Source: Bacillota bacterium
GTDB lineage: Bacteria > Sysuimicrobiota > Sysuimicrobiia > Sysuimicrobiales > Segetimicrobiaceae
Assembly (NCBI GenBank): GCA_021324975.1
Contig: JAJPIA010000085.1
Coordinates: 58,006-122,005 of the forward strand
Direction of reading: 5' to 3'
DNA length: 64,000 nt
The position numbers and the translations under genes are program-made. A model generated the notes under the pieces. It did no database searches. It was given only the letters and a program-made list of their open reading frames with translations, and was not told where the DNA came from. This document shows, piece after piece, positions 2,431-64,000 of this stretch. How positions within the stretch are numbered: position 1 is the first letter of the stretch; every line of letters begins with the position of its first letter.

Positions 2431-3402
2431 TCACACGTGCAGTTCGATGACATCGCCGTCTTCGAGGACGTGCTCCCGCTGGACCATTTGGCCCTCGAAT
2501 GCGCGGGCCCCCCAGATGCGCGCATACTTGAGCCGCTCGACGAAGTCCTTGTGGACGGCCGCGCACGCGTCCGCCACGGTCGCGCCGCGCGGCAGGACAA
2601 ACGGAACGGATCGATCGGCGCGGCGGCCGGGGGCCTTGGTGTACACGCGGATCACGCGCAGCAACCCAAACAACTCCCGGCGCAGCGTCTCCAGTCCCGC
2701 GCCGGTCTCCGCGGAAACCGGCAGGATGTCGAAGCGCGCGCCCCACGCCTCGCGTAGGATCTCGAGGCGGACGGCCGCGCCGTCGGCGTCGAGCTTCGAC
2801 GCGACCATCAATGTCGGCACAGCGTCCTCCCCGCCGGTCCTCTCGAGACGCACCCTGGACTGCGCAGCCAGGTCCACGGTCGTGTCGATGCCGCTCAGCA
2901 GATCGTCGTCGGCCAGGTCGGCGACGAGCAGCGCCGCGTCCGCTTGGCGCACGAGGGCCAGCAACCATGGTTCCGCGCTCTCCGGCGCGATCGGCGGTAG
3001 GTCGACGAGCTGCACCTGGATGTCCTCGAACGGGACCATGCCGGGCAACGGGATCCGGGTCGAGAACGGATACGGCGCCACGACCGGCGCGGCGTGGCTC
3101 AATGCCGCCAGCAGGCGTGACTTGCCGGCGTTCGGCGGGCCGCCGAGCATGACCTGCCCGGCTCCCTCGCGCGGGACATGGTGCCAGGTCGGTCCTTTTC
3201 CCCCGGCCGTCTTGCGGCGCGCGGCCTCCGTCCGAGCCTTCGCCATCCGGCGCCGGATATCGGCGCGCATGTGTTCAGTGCCCTTGTGCTTGGGGATGAC
3301 GGCCATCATCGCCTCGAGAGCAGCCAGTTGCTCCTCGGGGTTGGTGGCTTGGCGGTACCGGCGTTCCGCCTCGAGATACTGCGGCGTCAGGTTCGCGGGC
3401 AT
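2431..3402 (-). CDS. Obg/DRG-like GTP-binding protein with C-terminal TGS domain
   Basis: 323-aa ORF with P-loop GGPPNAGKS and a C-terminal TGS-like segment (ATVADACAAVHKDFVERLKYARIWG...GDVIELHV). Confidence 0.75.
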   Translation of the reverse strand: MPANLTPQYLEAERRYRQATNPEEQLAALEAMMAVIPKHKGTEHMRADIRRRMAKARTEAARRKTAGGKGPTWHHVPREGAGQVMLGGPPNAGKSRLLAALSHAAPVVAPYPFSTRIPLPGMVPFEDIQVQLVDLPPIAPESAEPWLLALVRQADAALLVADLADDDLLSGIDTTVDLAAQSRVRLERTGGEDAVPTLMVASKLDADGAAVRLEILREAWGARFDILPVSAETGAGLETLRRELFGLLRVIRVYTKAPGRRADRSVPFVLPRGATVADACAAVHKDFVERLKYARIWGARAFEGQMVQREHVLEDGDVIELHV

Positions 3403-15229: not shown

Positions 15230-15354
15230 TGTGCTCTCCCTACGGCATCGGCCGGTGGCCGCGTTAGGACGTCATCGGATTACTTCGACAACGGCTGGTA
15301 CCGGGCGGGCCTGGCCCGTCTACCTTCGTCGAACATACGAGATGAGGCACCAAT

Positions 15355-16140
15355 TTAGACGTCCCACCCGCCGTCGACGACGAGATCGTGGCCCGTGATC
15401 TGCCGGCTCTCCTCGGACGCCAGAAACACGACCGCGTGCGCGACGTCCTCGTCGGTGGAAAACCGGCGCAGCGCCATCTCGCCGACGTATTCATCGAACA
15501 CGTCCTGCTCTGTCGTGCCGCGCACCCGGGCCTTTTCCGCGACGATCCCCGTCATGCGGCCGCCTTCCACGACGCCCGGGCAGATCGCGTTGACGTTGAT
15601 GTTGAACGGCCCGACTTCAAGCGCCAGCGTCCGTGTGAGCCCGCGCACGGCCCACTTCGACGCCGAGTACGGTGCGCGATACCGGTACCCCCGCAGCCCG
15701 GACGTCCCCGCGACGTTGATGATCTTGCCGGCGCGCTGCGCGATCATCACCGGCACGACGGCCCGGCAGCAGAGAAACACGCCCTTGAGGTTCACGGCCA
15801 GGACGTGATCCCATGCCGCGGGGTCGACGGCATGGAGCGGCGTTTCCACGGGGCCGGTGACGCCGGCGGCGTTGACGAGCACGTCGATCCGCCCAAACTC
15901 CGCGCGCGTGCGGTCCACCAGGTTCGCGACCTGGGTCTCCTCCGTGACGTCGGTGGGCACGGCGAGGTGCCGGCCGCCGCCCTCGAGCCCGCGCAGCTTG
16001 TCCACGAGCGCTGCCAGCGGCGCCGCGTCGCGCGCCGCCGCCACGACGTGGGCGCCTTCCTGGGCCAGGCGGGCGCAGATCGCGCCTCCCATGCCTTTGG
16101 CCGCGCCCGTCACGATCGCGACCCGGTCACGTAGCTTCAC
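15355..16140 (-). CDS. Short-chain dehydrogenase/reductase (SDR)
   Basis: ORF 15355..16884 trimmed to the GTG at 16140 (VKLRDRVAIVTGAAKGMGGAI...), preceded by GGAGCAGGAGGGAG. It has TGxxxGxG, NAAG and YSASK catalytic motifs. GTGA overlap with hyuB. Confidence 0.88.
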   Translation of the reverse strand: MKLRDRVAIVTGAAKGMGGAICARLAQEGAHVVAAARDAAPLAALVDKLRGLEGGGRHLAVPTDVTEETQVANLVDRTRAEFGRIDVLVNAAGVTGPVETPLHAVDPAAWDHVLAVNLKGVFLCCRAVVPVMIAQRAGKIINVAGTSGLRGYRYRAPYSASKWAVRGLTRTLALEVGPFNINVNAICPGVVEGGRMTGIVAEKARVRGTTEQDVFDEYVGEMALRRFSTDEDVAHAVVFLASEESRQITGHDLVVDGGWDV

Positions 16141-56224: not shown

Positions 56225-56680
56225 TTAACTTGATGATTCCAGTGTCTGCACCAGCTTCACCAGGGCTTGTCGCGCGTCCGGCCATCGCAGCATGCCGACC
56301 GCTTCGTCTATCGGGAACCAGCCATACTGATCGTGCTCATCGTTCAGCTGAGGGTCCCAATTGATGCCCACCCGACCGGCAAATGCGTCGACCGTCACGG
56401 ACGTCACGTCCGGCGCGTACCAGGCGCGATATTCGGGCTCATCGTCGAGCATGTAGGCATAGCGGTGTTTGAGGTCGATAAGGCGATCTCCGAGCATCAG
56501 GCCCGTTTCCTCGCGTGTCTCCCGCACGGCCGCCTGGGCGCTCGTCTCCCCCGGATGCAACGCACCCGCGACGCCATGCCAGTATGCGCCTGCTGTGGGA
56601 GCGCGGTGAAGCAGCAGGACCTCATATCGCTCATTAACGCGCCGGTAGAGAAACACCAAACATTCGTGGGGAAGTCTCAC
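56225..56680 (-). CDS. Nudix hydrolase
   Basis: ORF 56225..56743 trimmed to the GTG at 56680 (SD GAAAGGA 6 nt upstream). Nudix box GALHPGETSAQAAVRETREETGL (GX5EX7REUXEEXGU). Confidence 0.85.
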   Translation of the reverse strand: MRLPHECLVFLYRRVNERYEVLLLHRAPTAGAYWHGVAGALHPGETSAQAAVRETREETGLMLGDRLIDLKHRYAYMLDDEPEYRAWYAPDVTSVTVDAFAGRVGINWDPQLNDEHDQYGWFPIDEAVGMLRWPDARQALVKLVQTLESSS

Positions 56681-56749
56681 GGTGGTCCTTTCGTCGTAGC
56701 GACTAGAGCGCCTTCCTACGCTGGCTTCCCCGGGGCGACACATACTGCA

Positions 56750-58276
56750 CTAATCATTTACAAACGCGCAGCCGCCGCGGGCCTTGCGCCCGAATACTTT
56801 TTTGTAGAGATCCTCGCCGTACGTGGTTTGCAGCGGCTCGCCTGGGACTACCTTGAACGTCCGGGTCCCACCCGGCCGCCGCTCCGCCCTTAGAAAGAGC
56901 GCATCTTCACTCCGCCGAGCGTGGAGGCCGTGCGCGAATGCGTACAAGTGCGTGACAAAAAAGACTTTGATGCCGCGCTCGGCGAGCGCCGAGGTGATCT
57001 GCCGTGCGATCTCCGAGCCCTCCCGCTCGTTCGTCGCCGCGAAGGATTCGTTGAACAGCATGAGCGCGTTGGGGTGGATCCGGTCTGCGATGTCGCTCAT
57101 GCGGCTGAGCTCTTCGTCGAATTTGCCGCTCTTCATGGACGGGTCTTCTTCCCGCTTGTAATGCGTGAAGAGACCGGAACACACATTGGCCCGGAACGAC
57201 GCGGCGGGCACGAACATACCGCACTGCATCATCAGCTGCGCCAGGCCGACACTGCGCAGAAAGGTGGACTTGCCGCCCTGGTTGGCGCCTGTGATGATCA
57301 CCGTGGTCCGGCCGTCGGCGTCCACGTCGTTGCCCACCACCCGCGATCCCACGGTCAGGCTCAAGCACACGTCGTACAGTCCGGCAAACGCATGCCGGCG
57401 TTGGTCCGCCCGCTCGGGAACGGGGAAGCATACCGGCTCGCCCTTGCGCGTGAGGTGCTCGTGGAGGTTCAGGCAGCCGACGTAGAAGGCCAGCTCGGCC
57501 CGCAGCATGGCGAAGAAGCTGAGGACGTGGTCGGCGGACTGCCCGAGCGCGTTCGCAACCAAGGCCACGCCTCGGTCCCGCAAGTCCGACAGGGCTCTCG
57601 CGCCCGCCTCGTCGCGGGGATGCAGGCGGTAGCTGTACGCCGGCGGCTTTTGCGCGAAGATGCGCTCGACCCAGCTCTGCGTGGTGTCGTGCGGCTTTCG
57701 GAGCACGTAGTTTGCGCCTTTGAGCCCCTGCCCCAATTCCGCGCTGACCAGCATGCCCTCGCGGAAGCGAAGCCGTCGCAGATGATCCCGAAGCTTGATG
57801 AAATAGCCGTCGTCGAGCTCGCGCCTGAGCGTTGCGAACAACCGCGTAAACCCCTCCGATTGGAACTCGTTGCCGTGCTCGTCGGCGACCTGTCGGAGGC
57901 GCCTGAGCAGGCCCTCGAATGCACCCAGCAAGTCCAGCGAGCGATGCAGGATGGTCCCTGGAGATCGAAAGACGGTCCAGTACCTCAGCTTCCGCTCTTC
58001 CAAGAACGCCTCGGTTGCGAGGCTATAGAGGCTTCGGACCGCGGCGGCGTTGTGGAGGCCATCCCGCAGCACGTCCTGCCGGTATCGGATCGCGTCCACG
58101 TCCGTCAAGCTGTCCAGCACGGCCGTCTGCACGACGCCGCGCACGAACTCATCGCCTCCTGCCATAGCGCCAAAGAGCGTGGCGAGTTCGAGATCCTGTG
58201 TGAGCGCCGGCGTATTCCACGGCAGCGGAGGTTGTACATCGAAATCACGATTGCGGTGCAGGAGGAATACCTTCAC
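56750..58276 (-). CDS. MutS-related ATPase (MutS domain V only, no mismatch-binding domain), subunit B
   Basis: 508-aa ORF with MutS-type Walker A ITGANQGGKSTFLRSVGLAQLMMQCGMFVPA, followed by MSDIADRIHPNALMLFNESFAATNEREG. There is no GxFxE mismatch-recognition N-domain. GTGA overlap with the upstream paralog. Confidence 0.85.
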   Translation of the reverse strand: MKVFLLHRNRDFDVQPPLPWNTPALTQDLELATLFGAMAGGDEFVRGVVQTAVLDSLTDVDAIRYRQDVLRDGLHNAAAVRSLYSLATEAFLEERKLRYWTVFRSPGTILHRSLDLLGAFEGLLRRLRQVADEHGNEFQSEGFTRLFATLRRELDDGYFIKLRDHLRRLRFREGMLVSAELGQGLKGANYVLRKPHDTTQSWVERIFAQKPPAYSYRLHPRDEAGARALSDLRDRGVALVANALGQSADHVLSFFAMLRAELAFYVGCLNLHEHLTRKGEPVCFPVPERADQRRHAFAGLYDVCLSLTVGSRVVGNDVDADGRTTVIITGANQGGKSTFLRSVGLAQLMMQCGMFVPAASFRANVCSGLFTHYKREEDPSMKSGKFDEELSRMSDIADRIHPNALMLFNESFAATNEREGSEIARQITSALAERGIKVFFVTHLYAFAHGLHARRSEDALFLRAERRPGGTRTFKVVPGEPLQTTYGEDLYKKVFGRKARGGCAFVND

Positions 58277-59844
58277 GATCCGATCCGCCGTTTCAGTTGA
58301 TCATAGGTGACCCGGTATCTCTCGGCAATCGACAGCGCGTAGGCGAGCCCGTCGGCCGCCGTTCTCACGACCTTGTAGGTGCGGACCGCGGGGTTGTCCG
58401 GGACGACGGCACTTACCATGCTGACGGTCTGCTCGCCGAGCGACGCCAGCTCGTCGATGAACGTGACGCACACGCACAGTAGGTCCAAGCGCATGATGGC
58501 GCCCATAATGTTCCGGCTCAGGAGGATGGCGTCGTCCAACACCGTCGACGTGAAGATCTCGTTCAGGATGATGATGCTGTCCGGTGTTGCCTGGTTCAGG
58601 ATCTTACGGATCCTCGCCAGGTCGTCTTCGAGCTTGCCCCGGAGCGTGGTGATGTCTTCTTCGCGCTCAAAGTGCGTGAAGAGCGCGTCGAACAGAAAGG
58701 TTCGCGCCTCCGTCCCGGCGACCGGGCAGCCGAGGCGGGCCAAATAGTGAAGTTGTCCGAACGTGCGGGCAAGCGTGGTCTTGCCGCCCTGGTTCGGACC
58801 GGATACCACGAGGATACGCTCGGGTCCGCGAAGGTAGAAGTCGTTGCAGACCACCGGCGACTTTTCCGGAATCAGCAGCTGGGCCAGGGCGAAGTCGTAG
58901 CCGTCGCGGCACAGCACGGCCTTGCTCTTGGAAACGCGCGGATAACACACGCTCAAGCCCGCGTTCCGGAACCGCGCGACGTACTCGAGGTACGCGATGT
59001 AAAATTGGATCTCCCGGTCAAAGGTGCGGATGACGCCGTCCTGGTATTCGCGGTGCTCGGTCCGGAACTCGTCGAGGCGGCGAAACTCCTCCGGCCACAG
59101 TTGGGCGGCGAACCCGACCACGGCGGCTTCGATGTGGTTCATGTCTCGCGCGCTGGTGAAGGAGACCGCGTAGTCGGTCACCGCGCCCTGCTTGAATCGC
59201 TCGAACGCTTGGACCACGTCGGCGCTGTAGTCGGCTTCGCCTTCGTACCGGCGGACGGTGAAACTGTCGCCCCGGATCAGGATGCAGTAGCGGATCGTGG
59301 CCAACCCTTGCTTGACCGATTGGATGTCCGCGACGAGCGATTGGAAGCGGTCAGACGCCACGTAACCCCGTAGATAGTCGCGGAACGCGACGAGGCCCCT
59401 TGCTCGCAACGGGGCGCCGTCCAAATCATGGGCCAGGGCGGTGGCGGTCTCGCAATAGAGCGCCGCCGCGTCCAGAAACCAGCTGTCCCTTTGCTGCTGA
59501 TAGTAGAACTTCTCGGCCTGCGTCAGGTGCTCGCGCATGGTCCGCATACGCTGCGCGAACGCCCGCAGGCACTCCAACACCGGGACGCGTTCGAGGTCCT
59601 GAAACACGTCGTGCCGGTACTCGATGTCGTCGAGGGTATCGAGCGGAGCGTGGAAGAACGGCCTGAGATTGTACTCGTCCTTGCCGGCCGTGACCGCTTC
59701 AACGATTTGGTCGAGATTGAGATCGGGAAAGCATTCGGGTACCTCGCCCCGCTCGACGCGCCCCTCGACTCTTTGCCATAAGATGCTGCGGAACGACGCC
59801 TCGGTGGCGGCGACGTCGGCCGGATGGATGGGGTTCGTGGCCAT
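58273..59844 (-). CDS. MutS-related ATPase (MutS domain V only), subunit A
   Basis: ORF 58273..59880 trimmed to the ATG at 59844 (MATNPIHPADV...), with SD GGAGG 10 nt upstream. Walker A VSGPNQGGKTTLARTFGQLHYLARLGCPVAG; SIIILNEIFTSTVLDD. The longer TTG start would lie inside the terminator U-tract. Confidence 0.85.
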   Translation of the reverse strand: MATNPIHPADVAATEASFRSILWQRVEGRVERGEVPECFPDLNLDQIVEAVTAGKDEYNLRPFFHAPLDTLDDIEYRHDVFQDLERVPVLECLRAFAQRMRTMREHLTQAEKFYYQQQRDSWFLDAAALYCETATALAHDLDGAPLRARGLVAFRDYLRGYVASDRFQSLVADIQSVKQGLATIRYCILIRGDSFTVRRYEGEADYSADVVQAFERFKQGAVTDYAVSFTSARDMNHIEAAVVGFAAQLWPEEFRRLDEFRTEHREYQDGVIRTFDREIQFYIAYLEYVARFRNAGLSVCYPRVSKSKAVLCRDGYDFALAQLLIPEKSPVVCNDFYLRGPERILVVSGPNQGGKTTLARTFGQLHYLARLGCPVAGTEARTFLFDALFTHFEREEDITTLRGKLEDDLARIRKILNQATPDSIIILNEIFTSTVLDDAILLSRNIMGAIMRLDLLCVCVTFIDELASLGEQTVSMVSAVVPDNPAVRTYKVVRTAADGLAYALSIAERYRVTYDQLKRRIGS

Positions 59845-59873
59845 TAGCAATGAGCCTCCAACCCAGCGAGCGG

Positions 59874-59913
59874 ACAACAAAAAAGCCTCTACGGTCTCGC
59901 GATCCCGTAGAAG
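59874..59913 (-). terminator. Intrinsic terminator acting as expression platform of the minus-strand fluoride riboswitch
   Basis: Minus-strand RNA CUUCUACGG-GAUCGCGAGA-CCGUAGAGG, a 9-bp stem with one G-U pair, followed by CUUUUUUGUUGU. The 5' arm reuses the aptamer pseudoknot strand GCUUCUAC. It ends about 30 nt before the ATG at 59844. Confidence 0.85.
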
Positions 59914-59962
59914 CTATCGGTCGCCGGACACCCCGGCGACGGTTTAGGCGAGCTTCATCGCC
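59907..59962 (-). promoter_or_regulatory. Fluoride riboswitch aptamer (crcB RNA motif), minus strand
   Basis: RNA GGCGA-UGAAGC-UCGCC-UAAAC-C-GUCGCCGG-GGUGU-CCGGCGAC-CGAUA-GCUUC-UAC. It has a P1 hairpin, an AAAC linker, a P3 hairpin and a GAUA...CUAC 3' tail. The tail GCUUC pairs with loop GAAGC as a pseudoknot. This is the architecture and conserved nucleotides I recall for the crcB motif. Confidence 0.88.
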
Positions 59963-59981
59963 TCGGATCTCGTGCGCTCAC

Positions 59982-60011
59982 ATTATAGGGGCGTCGAAAA
60001 GACTCCGTCAA
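59982..60011 (-). promoter_or_regulatory. Sigma-70-type promoter for the riboswitch/MutS-like transcript
   Basis: On the minus strand: TTGACG (60011..60006), 18-nt spacer, TATAAT (59987..59982). The predicted TSS is about 12 nt upstream of aptamer P1. Confidence 0.7.
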
Positions 60012-60176
60012 TCGGCGCCGCCGGACCGCGGACGGCAGGGGTGACCGCCGTACGGCTCCTCCATGCGACGCCATCACCGCGAGGGAACAGTTACCGGACT
60101 GCATCGAATTGAGCGCCCACGCCGAACGCGCCAACGACGGTGCGCTGCGGCGGGATCAAACTCGCCCAGAGCTGCG

Positions 60177-60206
60177 TTGACAGGCTGCTTCGTTTGGAAA
60201 TACCAT
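60177..60206 (+). promoter_or_regulatory. Sigma-70-type promoter for the plus-strand riboswitch/MFS transcript
   Basis: TTGACA (60177..60182), 18-nt spacer, TACCAT (60201..60206). The predicted TSS is a few nt upstream of the plus-strand aptamer. Confidence 0.55.
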
Positions 60207-60217
60207 GAACGCATCAC

Positions 60218-60266
60218 GGTGATGAGGCTCACCGAAACTGCCGGGCGACCGGCTGATAGCCTCTAC
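60218..60266 (+). promoter_or_regulatory. Fluoride riboswitch aptamer (crcB RNA motif), plus strand
   Basis: RNA GGUGA-UGAGGC-UCACC-GAAAC-U-GCCGG-GCGA-CCGGC-UGAUA-GCCUC-UAC. It has the same architecture as the minus-strand copy, with pseudoknot GAGGC/GCCUC and a GNRA-capped P3. The GAUGAGGC...AAACUGCC...GCUGAU.GCCUCUAC string closely matches the well-studied Thermotoga aptamer as I remember it. Confidence 0.88.
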
Positions 60267-60296
60267 CCGGTACGGGCGGGGGCTTCTGCATGTGTG
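60259..60296 (+). terminator. Candidate terminator/expression platform of the plus-strand riboswitch
   Basis: GCCUCUACCCG-GUA-CGGGCGGGGGC, an 11-position stem with one A.C mismatch and two G-U pairs, followed by UUCUGCAUGUGU. The 5' arm again contains the pseudoknot strand. The U-tract is weak. Confidence 0.45.
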
Positions 60297-60486
60297 GCGG
60301 CCTCTCCCCTCGTGCTTCCTCCGATTACGCGCCGACTTGCGATTCACGGATACGCGCGCCGCGTATGCCGCGGGCGCGCCGACCAAGAGAACGTGCCGCC
60401 GTGACGAAGGATCCGTGTATCGCGTTTCTCACGGAGTCGCAGATGTTTACGAGCAATGCCACGAACTCAGGGGGACATTCCCTATC

Positions 60487-61740
60487 ATGGCGGTTCCCGT
60501 AGCCCGGCCGGCAGGCCGGGAAGCGGCCCGCGCCGCGGCGCTCCGGTTCGTGGTGCTGCTGGGCGTCGTGAGCATGTTCTCCGACATGACGCACGAGGGC
60601 GCCCGCGGCATCACGGGGCCGTTTCTGGGCATGCTCGGGGCGAGCGCGCTGATCGTGGCGACCGTCGCGGGCGTCGGGGAGTTCTTGGGGTATGCGCTGC
60701 GCTTTCTGTTCGGTTCCCTGGCCGACCGGACCGGCATGTATTGGCCGATTACCTTGGTTGGATATACGATTCAAATGCTGGCCGTTCCGGCGCTCGCGCT
60801 GGTGGGGCATTGGCCGGCCGCGGCGCTGTTGATCGTGACGGAACGCTCCGGGCGGGCCATGCGAAATCCGCCGCGGGATGCAATGCTCGCACACGCCACT
60901 TGCGGGCTCGGCGCGGGCTGGGTCTTTGGCCTGCGCGAAGCGCTGGACGCGGCCGGCGCGATGATCGGCCCCCTGATCGTGGCGGCAACCGTTTACGTGC
61001 GAGGGGGGTATCGGTTGGGCTTCGCGGTCCTGATCGTCCCCGCGTTGCTCACCCTCATCGTACTCCTGAGCGCCTGGCGGCAGTATCCCCGACCGCACGA
61101 CCTCGGCGCCCCAGAGCGCATCCCGCAGGCCGCGGGTATCCCGCGTGTGTTTTGGATCTACCTGGGGGGCATGGCGCTCGTCGCGGCAGCCTATGTCGAC
61201 TACCCGCTCGCGGCGTATCACTTCGCCAGGAGCGGCGCGGTGCCACCCGCCTGGATCCCGATCTTGTATGCGGTAGCCATGGCAGCCGAAGCGGCCGGGG
61301 CGCTCGCGCTCGGGCGTCTCTTCGACCGCATCGGCCTCGCCACCGTGGTGTGGGCGACGGCGGCCACCGCGTTCTTCGGGCCGTTCATCTTCCTCGGCAA
61401 CACCGTGCTCGTTGTTCTCGGAATGGTCCTGTGGGGACTGGGCATAGCGGCGCAAGAGTCCGTTGTCAAAGCCGCCGTTACCGGCATGGTCGGCGCCGAG
61501 CGGCGAGCGTCTGCCTACGGTCTCTTCGACGCCGGCTTTGGCACGGCATGGATGCTCGGGAGCGTCGCGCTCGGGGTACTCTACAACCTGTCCGTGTACG
61601 CGCTGGTCGCCTTCACGGTGCTGCTGCAGCTCGCCGCGCTCCCTGTCTTCGCGGCGACCAGGCGGGCCATGCCAACGGAGCCTGTCCAAGGGCGGAGCCG
61701 CGGCAACTTCCCTGGGAACCGCGGTGACGGCACACGCTAA
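60487..61740 (+). CDS. Major facilitator superfamily (MFS) transporter
   Basis: ORF 60292..61740 trimmed to the ATG at 60487 (MAVPVARPAGREAARAAALRFVVLLGVVSMFSDMTHEG...), with AGGGGGA upstream. It has about 12 hydrophobic segments with a central loop. It is the only plus-strand gene in the window. Confidence 0.8.
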   Translation: MAVPVARPAGREAARAAALRFVVLLGVVSMFSDMTHEGARGITGPFLGMLGASALIVATVAGVGEFLGYALRFLFGSLADRTGMYWPITLVGYTIQMLAVPALALVGHWPAAALLIVTERSGRAMRNPPRDAMLAHATCGLGAGWVFGLREALDAAGAMIGPLIVAATVYVRGGYRLGFAVLIVPALLTLIVLLSAWRQYPRPHDLGAPERIPQAAGIPRVFWIYLGGMALVAAAYVDYPLAAYHFARSGAVPPAWIPILYAVAMAAEAAGALALGRLFDRIGLATVVWATAATAFFGPFIFLGNTVLVVLGMVLWGLGIAAQESVVKAAVTGMVGAERRASAYGLFDAGFGTAWMLGSVALGVLYNLSVYALVAFTVLLQLAALPVFAATRRAMPTEPVQGRSRGNFPGNRGDGTR

Positions 61741-62147
61741 GCGTGGCGAGGGTTAGGACGTCCACCTCGGGCGCGCGGTCGCTCCGACGCGGCGTCGGGT
61801 AGGATCGCGGCTCGCACCCGCTCCAACGCGTCCTGGACTGCGGCCACGTCGCGTGGCGACGGTGCTTCCAATCCGTACCGCACATGACTGTACAGGTCCG
61901 TGAGCGTCTCGATGGCAACCGAAGCGGCCGGTCGATACGAGCTTACCATGTGCGCTAACTCGGCGGGCGTCTGGCTCTTGGGGCGGCGTGCTCCCAACGT
62001 GTCTGCGAGACCGAGGAACTCGGCGTACGCCCGCCGGACGATGGCGGCCGTACCAGCCCCGAAATCTTGGCCGATACCCGTGGTGTCCCGCGCGCGTCGG
62101 CGGAAGAGATCGTGCCAAGACGCACGGAGATCCGTCCAGGACCACAC
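61737..62147 (-). CDS. DUF4129 domain protein (C-terminal module normally fused to a membrane N-terminus)
   Basis: 136-aa ORF (GTG start). The pattern RRAYAEFLGLADTLGARRPKSQTPAELAHMV...LTDLYSHVRYG matches DUF4129 as I recall it. It is in frame with the upstream membrane ORF across a single TAG. Confidence 0.6.
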   Translation of the reverse strand: MWSWTDLRASWHDLFRRRARDTTGIGQDFGAGTAAIVRRAYAEFLGLADTLGARRPKSQTPAELAHMVSSYRPAASVAIETLTDLYSHVRYGLEAPSPRDVAAVQDALERVRAAILPDAASERPRARGGRPNPRHA

Positions 62148-62150
62148 CGA

Positions 62151-63299
62151 CTAGCGCACGATGTCGGCGGGGTGGCGCCGGCCCACCCGCTCATACCGAA
62201 ATACAGACCGGGCAATCAGCAGCAATACGACTGCCAGCAAGGCCAGCGCCGCCCCCCACCGTAGCGCTGCGGCCGCTTCGGGCGGTAATCCAGCCGTGTG
62301 CCCCTGAGACAATTGTTGCAGCCACGCCGCGGGCGACGGCGAGGGCATCGGCTGCACGGCGTGGGGATGCAGCATACGGCGGATCGCCCAGACAATTCCC
62401 GAGAGAACGAACCCGATCGGCACGGCGATCACATAGAGGAGCGCAAGCAGCACCGCATCCAATGCCGGCGCCACGGCGCGAAAGACAGCCGCGACATCGA
62501 GCCGCAATACGGCGCCTGCGAGCGTGGCGACGACCAGTACGGCGGCCGCGGCCCCTACCACCAGCGCGTACCAGTCCGCCGTCACCGCGGCGTTTTGCTG
62601 TGACGCGCGAGTCTGACGGTGCACGGACTGCAACCGCGCAATCGGTAGCGCGATCAGGCTGACGAGGAAGAACCCAAGCAGATACGGAAAACCGGCCGCC
62701 GCCGCGGCGGTGAGCGGAGGAACCGTGTGCCCGGCCGCCATCACGGCAGCGAACACGCCAAACGCCGCGAGCCCGAGCGTGAAGATGGTCTCGACGTCGT
62801 AGTATTCGAGCGTCGTGCGGCCGATCACGAGCGCACGGCGCCACACCAGCATCGCGAAGACCCACGCCGGCAGCTCCGGGCGTGCCCCGGCCAGGATCGA
62901 GACCAGCCACTCGCGGGCCGGGCCGTGCAGGAGGCGCCAGGCCGGATCAGCGCGGTATTGCCAGACGACGGCCAATGCCCCGGCCGCGGCGCCTCCCACG
63001 ACCAGCGCGACGCGGGCTGGCGCGATGCGCGCCCCGGCAGGGCGCGATAGGCCCGCTCGGCCCACGATTTGCCCGCCGGCAAGCAACACGCAGACGGTCA
63101 CCGGAGCGAGCAGGCTCGACGGGGCGCCGAGCCAGATCGTGCCCGCGAGGATGGCGTACGGGACAATCCACGCAGCGTCCATCGCCGCCACGAGCAACGG
63201 CAGGGTCCATCCCGGCGAGTCGGGCGCGCCGCTCCCCGCCGCAGCCGACCGGGACCTGTTCTCGGAAGGGTCCTCTCGCGTCCGCAGCACCGATCGCAT
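62151..63299 (-). CDS. Multi-pass membrane protein (N-terminal module of a DUF4129-type protein in a MoxR/DUF58 operon)
   Basis: 382-aa ORF with numerous hydrophobic helices. It starts 8 nt after the DUF58 stop and ends at a TAG that is in frame with the DUF4129 ORF. Confidence 0.7.
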   Translation of the reverse strand: MRSVLRTREDPSENRSRSAAAGSGAPDSPGWTLPLLVAAMDAAWIVPYAILAGTIWLGAPSSLLAPVTVCVLLAGGQIVGRAGLSRPAGARIAPARVALVVGGAAAGALAVVWQYRADPAWRLLHGPAREWLVSILAGARPELPAWVFAMLVWRRALVIGRTTLEYYDVETIFTLGLAAFGVFAAVMAAGHTVPPLTAAAAAGFPYLLGFFLVSLIALPIARLQSVHRQTRASQQNAAVTADWYALVVGAAAAVLVVATLAGAVLRLDVAAVFRAVAPALDAVLLALLYVIAVPIGFVLSGIVWAIRRMLHPHAVQPMPSPSPAAWLQQLSQGHTAGLPPEAAAALRWGAALALLAVVLLLIARSVFRYERVGRRHPADIVR

Positions 63300-63306
63300 C
63301 TCGGGC

Positions 63307-64000
63307 CTACGCCAGCGCTACGCGGCGCACGTCACGCCACGCGTCCTCGCCGCGCACCTCGAATACCGGGAGGTCATCGGCGGTGACCGTCCGGGCGTCC
63401 GAGCCAATCACTACGAGACCCGCGGACCTTCCCGTGCGTCTGGCCGCTCGCAGGGCTTCGACGGCTTCCGGTTCCGGCACGGCCGTGATCGCGAGCACGC
63501 TCGTCCCCCAGGGGAGGGCCGGCATCTCCGCCGCGAGCAGTTCCTCCAGCGGCGTCGTCGCCACCGGGGCCACCGTAGCGAGCGCTTCGAGCACGGTCTG
63601 CAGCTGCTGCGGATGGTCGCTCGGGGGAACGGCAATCGTCGCCATGCCCGCGCCACGGAAGCGGGGACCGTTGACGTAGAGGCCAACCGGAAGTTTCTGC
63701 TCCGCACTCCATGCGGCGACCGACGCGGCCACGATGATCGCCACCTCGACGAGCAGCGGATCGTACCCCGCCCACCAGGCGTGCCCCCGCAGCGTGTGCA
63801 TGTCCAGAAAGAGCGCAAGGCGCGGGTGGGTCGTCGGCTCGAAGATCTTGACGTGCAGCCGCCGAAGTCGGGCGGACGCCTTCCAGTGGATACGCCGGAG
63901 CGAGTCGCCGGCCTCATAGGGGCGCACGCCGGCAAGATGCGCGGGGTCCTCCCAAAGCGTGCGCGGCGCGATGAGATCTCCGAACGGGCCCTGCGCGTCC
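63307..64000 (-). CDS. DUF58 (vWA-like) protein, N-terminus beyond the window end
   Basis: The frame of ORF 63307..63927 stays open to position 64000 (DAQGPFGDLIAPRTLWEDPAHLAGVRPYEAGDSLRRIHWKASAR...). The R.Y..GD..R.I.WK block is the DUF58 hallmark. Confidence 0.8.
   Translation of the reverse strand, partial: DAQGPFGDLIAPRTLWEDPAHLAGVRPYEAGDSLRRIHWKASARLRRLHVKIFEPTTHPRLALFLDMHTLRGHAWWAGYDPLLVEVAIIVAASVAAWSAEQKLPVGLYVNGPRFRGAGMATIAVPPSDHPQQLQTVLEALATVAPVATTPLEELLAAEMPALPWGTSVLAITAVPEPEAVEALRAARRTGRSAGLVVIGSDARTVTADDLPVFEVRGEDAWRDVRRVALA

Follow-up and report, generated by a model that had tools for sequence, protein, structure and literature searches.

A fluoride riboswitch in front of a conserved MFS transporter gene whose relatives recur in fluoride-riboswitch neighbourhoods of bacteria and archaea

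Introduction

Why should a fluoride riboswitch precede a gene for a transporter of the major facilitator superfamily (MFS)? Fluoride defence is currently explained by Fluc/CrcB, CLC-F, the eukaryotic Fluc relative FEX and poorly understood riboswitch-linked genes. The question arises in a 64,000-nucleotide stretch of DNA from a Bacillota bacterium (assembly GCA_021324975.1, contig JAJPIA010000085.1, of 330,649 bp), hereafter called the window, in which a plus-strand fluoride aptamer is followed by an MFS gene. An earlier note on this DNA, made from its letters alone, had raised the possibility that the encoded protein is an alternative fluoride exporter. We find that the family to which this protein belongs turns up repeatedly beside fluoride riboswitches, in many bacterial phyla as well as in archaea, and that it is likely an unrecognised part of the fluoride stress response.

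The plus-strand aptamer and its promoter

Scanning the whole 64 kb with Rfam models at their curated thresholds gave exactly two matches, both to the fluoride riboswitch model RF01734 and one on each strand. The plus-strand match is full-length (model positions 1-64, E 8.7e-08, cmscan), and all 13 pairs of P1, P2 and the pseudoknot can form in it, around the core GGUGAUGAGGCUCACC...GGCUGAUAGCCUCUAC at 60218-60266. This element is a genuine crcB-type fluoride aptamer. The earlier note had called it as such and named the RF01734 scan as the check; its description of the aptamer as ‘divergent’ has to be dropped, since the element is an ordinary member of RF01734. The plus-strand features are as follows.

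60177-60206, plus strand: sigma-70-like promoter, -35 TTGACA (60177-82), 18-nt spacer, -10 TACCAT (60201-06), 10/12 matches
60209-60272, plus strand: fluoride riboswitch aptamer (RF01734), 40.6 bits against the Rfam gathering cut-off of 34
60218-21/60230-33, plus strand: aptamer P1
60240-43/60250-53, plus strand: aptamer P2
60224-29 with 60258-63, plus strand: aptamer pseudoknot
60258-60297, plus strand: terminator-like hairpin (60258-69/60273-84, -20.8 kcal/mol), then a weak U-containing tail UUCUGCAUGUGUGG
60298-60469, plus strand: long untranslated leader, lineage-specific
60350-60366, plus strand: palindrome ATACGCG-CGC-CGCGTAT, no more stable than shuffles (z -0.98)
60470-60475, plus strand: Shine-Dalgarno-like GGGGGA, 11 nt before the ATG, as read from the sequence
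60487-61740, plus strand: MFS transporter gene, ATG start, 417 aa, monocistronic, Pfam MFS_1 (PF07690) at 60.9 bits against a gathering score of 33.4

The aptamer is placed in the 5′ leader, and the expression platform overlaps its 3′ end. The transcript is predicted to start a few nucleotides before P1, from the promoter that the earlier note had also pointed out. Two sigma-70-like sites were found in 59000-62200, against 0.4 expected from shuffled sequences, and each of the two aptamers lies behind one of them, so the switches stand back to back. The MFS gene is the next plus-strand gene after the aptamer, and there is no other plus-strand gene available as a target. Its ATG lies 214 nt from the aptamer end (220 nt in the earlier note, which likewise took this sole downstream gene, with its 12 transmembrane helices, for the target, plausibly so). 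All coordinates and sequences in that note were reproduced.

The transporter family is associated with fluoride aptamers

At E<=1e-5, a word-indexed search with the MFS protein returned 2894 homologues, of which the top 120 show 55-79% identity; the top homologues include Streptomyces, Micromonospora, Ktedonobacterales and Limnocylindrales. A full profile search gave 1294 cluster representatives (50% identity clusters) at E<=1e-30, and the protein therefore belongs to a discrete family. For 80 loci with a homologue (45-68% identity), we retrieved the gene together with 4 kb of sequence to either side, 615 kb in total; fetched homologue loci bear labels such as L004. The 80 span Chloroflexota, Actinomycetota, several proteobacterial classes, Nitrospirota, Acidobacteriota, Bacillota, Chlamydiota, cyanobacteria and Legionella, together with two archaea (Freyarchaeota and Methanobacteriota).

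At the gathering threshold, RF01734 matches occur within 4 kb of the homologue in 32 of the 80 loci, an outcome that favours the earlier note, which had proposed looking for crcB motifs at relatives of the MFS gene. Over the 615 kb there are 46 aptamers, or ~75 per Mb. A genome usually has one fluoride aptamer or a few, and the Rfam scan found none in the window beyond the two switches. These counts replace an initial regular-expression screen, which had found motifs in 12 of the 32 Rfam-positive loci. We also built a covariance model of our own, R1, from 34 Rfam-positive matches, and it gave weaker candidates in 10 more loci. In an alignment of 30 aptamers from the MFS loci, 98.4% of the cells are paired and 11 of the 13 pairs in P1, P2 and the pseudoknot show a compensatory change, which none of 500 shuffles reached; the alignment was fitted to R1 and is hence biased towards the structure.

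In several lineages the aptamer stands directly upstream of the transporter. RF01734-grade examples are the window, L061 (an Asgard archaeon), L062 (a proteobacterial metagenome-assembled genome, MAG) and L037 (Dyella); in L083 the corresponding aptamer scores 32.7 bits, marginally under the Rfam cut-off. Weaker variants occupy the same position in L004 (Streptomyces), L009, L015, L019, L040, L063, L064, L080 and L087. In many of the weaker variants, P1 is separated from the AAC/P2 region by an additional hairpin or a lengthened linker; they keep the pseudoknot complementarity. The weaker variants were detected by R1 alone or by RF01734 below its cut-off. Sub-cut-off variants lie at the following positions of their loci.

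L009, 3808-3886
L015, 3821-3900
L019, 3824-3902
L040, 3869-3944
L063, 282-356
L080, 3821-3900
L087, 4861-4942

Canonical terminators with a U-tract, re-using the pseudoknot strand, follow the aptamer in L009, L019, L040, L062, L063, L080 and L087. The Rfam cut-off thus misses fluoride aptamers with an extra hairpin that are nevertheless linked to terminators, and Rfam-based counts underestimate this subclass. In most other lineages, the spacer between aptamer and MFS gene is 40-110 nt long, compared with 214 nt in the window.

Furthermore, in at least 12 further loci (including L005, L026, L033, L052, L068, L069 and L077) the MFS gene comes second or later in an operon that begins with an Rfam-grade aptamer. 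Gene orders in such operons include Na+/H+ exchanger-Usp/CBS-MFS, enolase-MFS, crcB-DUF190/CBS-MFS, MutS pair-MFS and dynamin GTPase-MFS.

L061 and L033 carry two aptamers each. In the Candidatus Freyarchaeota locus (L061) they lie at 1454-1514 and 2963-3039 (59.8 and 45.2 bits); one precedes the MFS homologue and the other a prenyltransferase-like gene. In L033, tandem aptamers at 2146-2212 and 2275-2340, 62 nt apart, precede an operon of a 426-aa gene without a Pfam match, Usp/CBS and MFS.

Neighbouring genes and plasmids

All open reading frames (ORFs) of the 80 loci were clustered, and the cluster representatives were searched against Pfam. The neighbours include enolase and Usp/CBS (17 loci each), a dynamin-family GTPase and a MutS_V pair (16 each), Na_H_Exchanger (9) and CrcB (~7), as well as pyrophosphatase, CLC and dihydroxy-acid dehydratase. 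Enolase sometimes stands directly before the MFS gene in the same riboswitch-headed operon, as in L069 and L073. Most of these classes are among those reviewed as the fluoride regulon (PMC11139923). A fluoride-regulon marker or an aptamer is present in 50 of the 80 loci. The riboswitch-free loci show no consistent alternative context; their neighbours include P450, GNAT, methyltransferase, DtxR-like repressor, Proton_antipo_M, porin and aminotransferase genes. With homologues behind or beside fluoride aptamers in so many phyla, comparison strongly supports the hedged suggestion in the earlier note that the transporter serves in fluoride defence.

The homologue and crcB occupy one island or operon in L005, L030, L054, L062, L077, L080, L087 and an Aquicella plasmid, and homologues lie beside CLC in L017 and L037; a Burkholderia plasmid carries both. 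Since the MFS gene thus co-occurs with CrcB or CLC, sometimes in one operon, we regard it as an accessory to the canonical exporters and not as a stand-in for them.

The family is often plasmid-borne, and annotated plasmids from cultured strains repeat these gene associations even where a riboswitch is absent. On a conjugative plasmid of a Burkholderia cenocepacia blood isolate (L090, NZ_CP073671.1, 83965-97084), a compact fluoride island has four Rfam-grade aptamers, which control crcB, a histidine-phosphatase region, CLC and a MutS-like pair. Between them is the MFS homologue, which seems to be split (two pieces by tblastn, with a truncated annotated coding sequence). The presence of both crcB and CLC in this island indicates that redundancy among exporters is tolerated. 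The Aquicella lusitana plasmid (L093, 4222-6548) carries crcB-DUF190-MFS-arsC as one tight operon, and on a Mycobacterium branderi plasmid eno adjoins DUF190-MFS. A Rubrobacter plasmid has an aptamer, three ORFs annotated as hypothetical and then the MFS gene; this aptamer is sub-Rfam and scores 22.1 bits by our own model only. Carriage on plasmids could mean that horizontal transfer adds to the conservation of the family.

Further observations concern individual neighbours. The dynamin-family GTPase (~570-585 aa) is the first gene behind the aptamer in L005, L032, L047, L052, L068 and L074, and the fluoride-regulon reviews consulted do not mention this association. It may be relevant that metal fluorides act as mimics of the gamma-phosphate in GTPases. 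Of five neighbour clusters classed as unknown, four (unk343, unk448, unk277 and unk186) were discarded as shadow ORFs, which run antisense to genes for enolase, Na_H_Exchanger and MutS. The fifth, a 176-aa ORF found in 8 loci, overlaps no known gene, has no Pfam match and looks real.

The MFS protein resembles proton-coupled exporters

The product of the MFS gene belongs to the superfamily by its PF07690 score, by 12 predicted transmembrane helices and by structural matches (Foldseek) that are all MFS proteins. Its AlphaFold2 model has 12 long helices (predicted local distance difference test, pLDDT, 87.4; predicted template modelling score, pTM, 0.85). A longer frame from GTG 60292, which would shorten the spacer, was ruled out: homologues align from residue 1-17 of the 417-aa form, and third-position G+C falls from 0.83 to 0.68 upstream of the ATG.

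Motif C marks MFS proton antiporters, that is, exporters. We compared the protein with the drug:H+-antiporter (DHA) consensus, in which motif A is G-x3-D-R/K-x-G-R-R/K between helices 2 and 3 and motif C is G-x8-G-x3-G-P-x2-G-G in helix 5. The MFS protein has motif A as G76-SLA-D80-R81-T-G83 (GSLADRTG, 76-83) and antiporter motif C as G148-x8-G157-x3-G161-P162 (GLREALDAAGAMIGP, 148-162). The key G, D, R and GP residues are invariant in 19 diverse homologues; the trailing R-R of motif A and G-G of motif C are not kept. Also invariant in these homologues is an unusual set of charged residues, D33, E37, R40, E65, R72, E119, R120, E151, D154, D238 and E324.

Among NCBIfam models, the window protein matches the generic ‘mfs’ model only, at 19.7 bits against a cut-off of 100. 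The 19 family members give weak matches to Tet(K/L/A), MdtH, SV2 and ‘H+ antiporter’ models, far below the cut-offs. The NCBIfam and Pfam scans thus assign no named subfamily beyond MFS_1 and weak ATG22 and Tet/MdtH matches; neither the window protein nor the family members match an ArsJ or organophosphate-transporter model in NCBIfam, and Pfam finds neither a CRCB domain nor Voltage_CLC in the protein. A sequence search of solved structures gave nothing below E 0.09. In Foldseek searches with the model, OxlT had the top TM-score (0.78), followed by VMAT, VAChT, SV2A, MCT, NorA and MdfA. These matches are generic, at ~15% identity, and are therefore no guide to the substrate. Judging from motifs A and C and the weak Tet(K/L)/MdtH-type relatives, the protein is probably a proton-coupled exporter of a DHA-like kind.

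The competing hairpin and the long leader

The hairpin at 60258-60284 re-uses the 3′ strand of the pseudoknot (60258-63) and so competes with the pseudoknot, which agrees with the earlier note, where a hairpin after the aptamer was said to sequester this strand. We attach significance to the hairpin because of its position and its counterparts in relatives, not because of its energy alone. The closest relative (L083, MFS protein 79% identical) has the same layout: its aptamer is followed by a perfect 14-bp terminator-like stem (z -3.68) and a 383-nt spacer. By analogy of sequence and position, the window hairpin would act as a terminator.

The 214-nt spacer shows no coding signal in any frame, with third-position G+C of 0.57-0.68 in all frames, compared with 0.83 in the MFS and MutS genes. 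It has no blastn homology in any other fetched locus, and the promoter search of 59000-62200 found no further promoter-like site inside it. Pairwise alignment with the L083 leader, the sole such pair aligned, gave no convincing similarity. Another assembly of this organism (L082) has the identical leader sequence, and as a whole the leader folds no better than shuffled sequences (z +0.55). Since the spacer is non-coding, unconserved and of unremarkable fold, we treat it as a lineage-specific long leader. The earlier note was right that a 7-bp palindrome lies at 60350-60366, but the second regulatory layer which it suggested is not borne out, given chance-level stability and no coding, promoter or homology signal. 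Rho-dependent termination within the long leader is possible, as pure conjecture.

A proposed role in fluoride stress

The explanation we favour, with moderate confidence, is that the fluoride riboswitch is an ON switch for a conserved MFS exporter that works with CrcB/CLC-F. Transcription would begin at the TTGACA/TACCAT promoter. When fluoride is scarce, the 3′ pseudoknot strand would pair downstream to form the 60258-60284 hairpin, and transcription would halt before the MFS gene, at the hairpin or farther along the leader. When fluoride and Mg2+ are bound, the pseudoknot would keep 60258-63, the hairpin would be blocked and RNA polymerase would read through into the MFS gene. Such fluoride-dependent anti-termination in this genome is suggested by the sequence. 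The transporter would then use the proton gradient to export something that is harmful under fluoride stress, alongside CrcB/CLC-F.

The least certain step is the substrate. We suggest, tentatively, that it is fluoride in some form, which might be F-/HF (hydrogen fluoride) or a cationic metal-fluoride such as MgF+. The cationic option is raised by the acidic cavity and the Tet(L)-like relatives. Tet(L) and Tet(K) export metal-chelate cations in exchange for H+, and it is by this analogy that we name an MgF+-type substrate. Identities of 45-55% between distant phyla and archaea would fit carriers of inorganic ions better than drug pumps. That the family forms a third class of fluoride exporter in bacteria and archaea, proton-coupled and complementing Fluc and CLC-F, is conceivable but doubtful.

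Several points weigh against this explanation. The energy of the 60258-60284 hairpin is not unusual against shuffles in sequence of 70% G+C (z -0.59), and its U-tract is poor; the terminator of the partner riboswitch, in this same genome, is a textbook one. A separate promoter could be hidden in the 214-nt leader. Several of the directly upstream aptamers are sub-cut-off in Rfam and rest on our self-built model R1, and 30 of the 80 homologue loci lack any fluoride marker. Acidic residues predominate among the charges of the cavity, as would not be expected for transport of a bare anion, and the frequent co-occurrence with CrcB/CLC speaks against a simple role as fluoride exporter. We infer the substrate and the direction of transport, like every step of the mechanism, from sequence. 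Finally, some homologues stand in arsenic or metal contexts, which hints at a broader role in toxic-ion stress; examples are ArsR-methyltransferase-ArsP-MFS in a MAG (L088, 2031-6260), the arsC-containing operon of the Aquicella plasmid and a DtxR/MntR-like repressor directly upstream of the homologue in a Parachlamydiales MAG (L051, 1364-3041).

Alternatively, the MFS protein could be a monovalent cation/proton antiporter for pH and ion homeostasis under HF-driven acidification, moving no fluoride. The many invariant acidic residues in its helices would suit such a role, and its nearest named relatives, of the Tet(L)/Tet(K) and MdtH types, include Na+(K+)/H+ antiport proteins. Na+/H+ antiporters are also the second most common riboswitch-associated class (PMC11139923), and MFS and Na_H_Exchanger genes share one operon in L005, L026, L033, L044, L052 and L068. 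However, a dedicated Na+/H+ exchanger in the same operon would make a second cation/proton antiporter redundant, the similarity to the Tet/MdtH models is far under their cut-offs, and we found no tie of the family to sodium or potassium. We therefore consider this role unlikely.

Less probable still is that the transporter exports an organic metabolite, such as a glycolytic intermediate or a toxic derivative, that piles up once enolase or another phosphoryl-transfer enzyme is blocked by fluoride. The GAPDH-ArsJ pair in arsenate defence or SetA-type sugar efflux would be an analogy. The position of enolase as joint most frequent neighbour, directly before the MFS gene in loci such as L069 and L073 and beside DUF190-MFS in Mycobacterium branderi, would fit, as would the best TM-score match, the carboxylate exchanger OxlT. 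However, 45-55% identity among Chlamydiota, Chloroflexota and archaea is unusually high for metabolite or drug effluxers, no NCBIfam model for ArsJ or organophosphate transporters is matched, and the OxlT match, at only 15% identity, probably reflects the occluded conformation of the model.

Finally, that the aptamer is uncoupled from the MFS gene in this genome, with transcripts that stop at or beyond the hairpin as an orphan leader or small RNA and a separate MFS promoter inside the spacer, might be read from the unusually long and unconserved spacer and the weak U-tail, but is very improbable given that the spacer holds no second promoter-like site, that L083 maintains the order of aptamer, hairpin, long leader and MFS gene, and that no alternative plus-strand target exists.

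The partner riboswitch and the surrounding region

Back to back with the plus-strand switch lies its minus-strand partner, with the following features.

59982-60011, minus strand: promoter TTGACG-18-TATAAT, 11/12 matches
59901-59971, minus strand: fluoride aptamer (RF01734), 38.6 bits against the cut-off of 34
59878-59915, minus strand: intrinsic terminator AGCUUCUACGG...CCGUAGAGGCU, then U6, with an 11-bp stem re-using AGCUUCUAC
58273-59880 (first start; 59844 by the gene caller), minus strand: MutS domain-V paralogue 1, behind the partner riboswitch
56750-58276, minus strand: MutS domain-V paralogue 2, behind the partner riboswitch
56225-56743, minus strand: NUDIX hydrolase, last gene of the partner operon (56225-59880)

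MutS-like genes are a long-known association of the fluoride riboswitch motif (PMC2864571). A NUDIX gene is also found immediately 5′ of the MFS homologue on Rhizobium plasmids (L094).

The same genome has a second back-to-back aptamer pair beyond the right end of the window, at ~65553-65858 (L081, 15067-15142 on the minus strand and 15307-15372 on the plus strand). The minus-strand member (32.7 bits in Rfam, just under the cut-off) heads a MoxR AAA-DUF58-DUF4129 operon, which extends into the window (61737-64000) and is convergent with the MFS gene. The plus-strand member (35.4 bits) heads an operon of NADHdh, Proton_antipo_M, Complex1_30+49kDa and Oxidored_q6 genes (formate-hydrogenlyase or Mbh-like). 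Counting both pairs, a ~6-kb stretch of this genome holds at least four fluoride aptamers, and the region is therefore a fluoride island.

In L087, too, MoxR-DUF58 modules lie 3′ of the MFS gene, and in L028 a DUF58 gene stands behind an aptamer. The DUF4129 gene in the window contains an in-frame TAG (62151-62153, minus strand, context HPADIVR*SVWSW). The public gene call has one 520-aa product across it (61737-63299), with the same gene length in the second assembly (L082); the TAG could reflect read-through, a pseudogene or a gene-calling quirk.

A profile made from matches in related loci found no CrcB at E<=1 in the window, in L081 or in the 10 kb past the right end (~74 kb). No CLC was found in the window, with a query that is an N-terminal fragment only and so a weaker check. 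The earlier note had remarked that neither gene is nearby, which stands for the window within that limit of the CLC query; its suggestion that the MFS protein could be an alternative to these exporters is weakened by the homologues that share islands or operons with crcB or CLC.

Significance

With ~1300 clusters at 50% identity, high conservation, carriage on plasmids and recurrence in fluoride islands, the family offers a concrete candidate, easy to test, for a missing part of fluoride defence. It could be a new removal route for fluoride or metal-fluoride, or could reveal secondary damage that cells must export under fluoride stress. Either would matter for the understanding of fluoride toxicity, for oral and environmental microbiology and for the engineering of microbes that degrade organofluorines, where the fluoride released limits growth.

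A full-text literature search found no paper that ties an MFS family to the fluoride riboswitch or to fluoride resistance; the search did not cover the gene list of Baker et al. 2012, where a prior mention is possible. The 2010 motif paper and two reviews list mutS, K+/Cl- transport, formate hydrogenlyase, Na+/H+ antiporters, pyrophosphatase, HAD, enolase and chorismate mutase, and no MFS gene; within the supplement of the 2010 paper, the 200 of 438 files that were searched held no match.

Comparison with known systems

The closest regulatory parallel is riboswitch-controlled crcB/Fluc, which has the same aptamer class, ON logic, a terminator competing with the pseudoknot and the same 5′-leader position. 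The controlled gene differs: in the window it encodes an MFS carrier, and not a dual-topology Fluc channel (CRCB domain, ~120-130 aa, four transmembrane helices). CLC-F antiporters are likewise secondary-active transporters under a fluoride switch, with a proton coupling that the MFS protein probably shares, and would be the nearest functional precedent if the MFS protein moves fluoride. The MFS protein comes from another superfamily without a Voltage_CLC domain, and the CLC-F signature sequences are inapplicable to it. Na+/H+ antiporters of the CPA1/NhaP type are also non-canonical transporters that recur behind fluoride aptamers, and are presumed to serve pH and ion homeostasis. Their genes are often in one operon with the MFS gene, but their fold and family are different, and the MFS gene is usually present in addition to them and not instead of them.

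Among MFS proteins, the DHA-type transporters Tet(K)/Tet(L), Tet(A), MdtH, MdfA and NorA share 12 transmembrane helices, the key residues of motifs A and C, weak profile matches and structural similarity with the window protein. In contrast, the named models match it far below their cut-offs, it is ~15% identical to solved structures, and its gene lies in a genomic context of ion stress and not of drug resistance. GAPDH-ArsJ likewise couples an MFS exporter genetically to a glycolytic enzyme in defence against a toxic anion, and some homologues of the window protein lie in ars clusters (L088, and arsC in Aquicella). However, this family gives no match to the ArsJ model, and its partner enzyme is enolase, which is not known to form a covalent fluoride adduct. 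A transporter outside Fluc and CLC-F that raises fluoride tolerance has a precedent in BenE-I of Pseudomonas putida, although BenE is not an MFS family and BenE-I is regulated by a Cro/cI-type repressor and not by a riboswitch (PMC13104614). The locus thus combines a known class of switch with a new class of effector gene: the riboswitch itself is ordinary, and the gene family is the interesting part.

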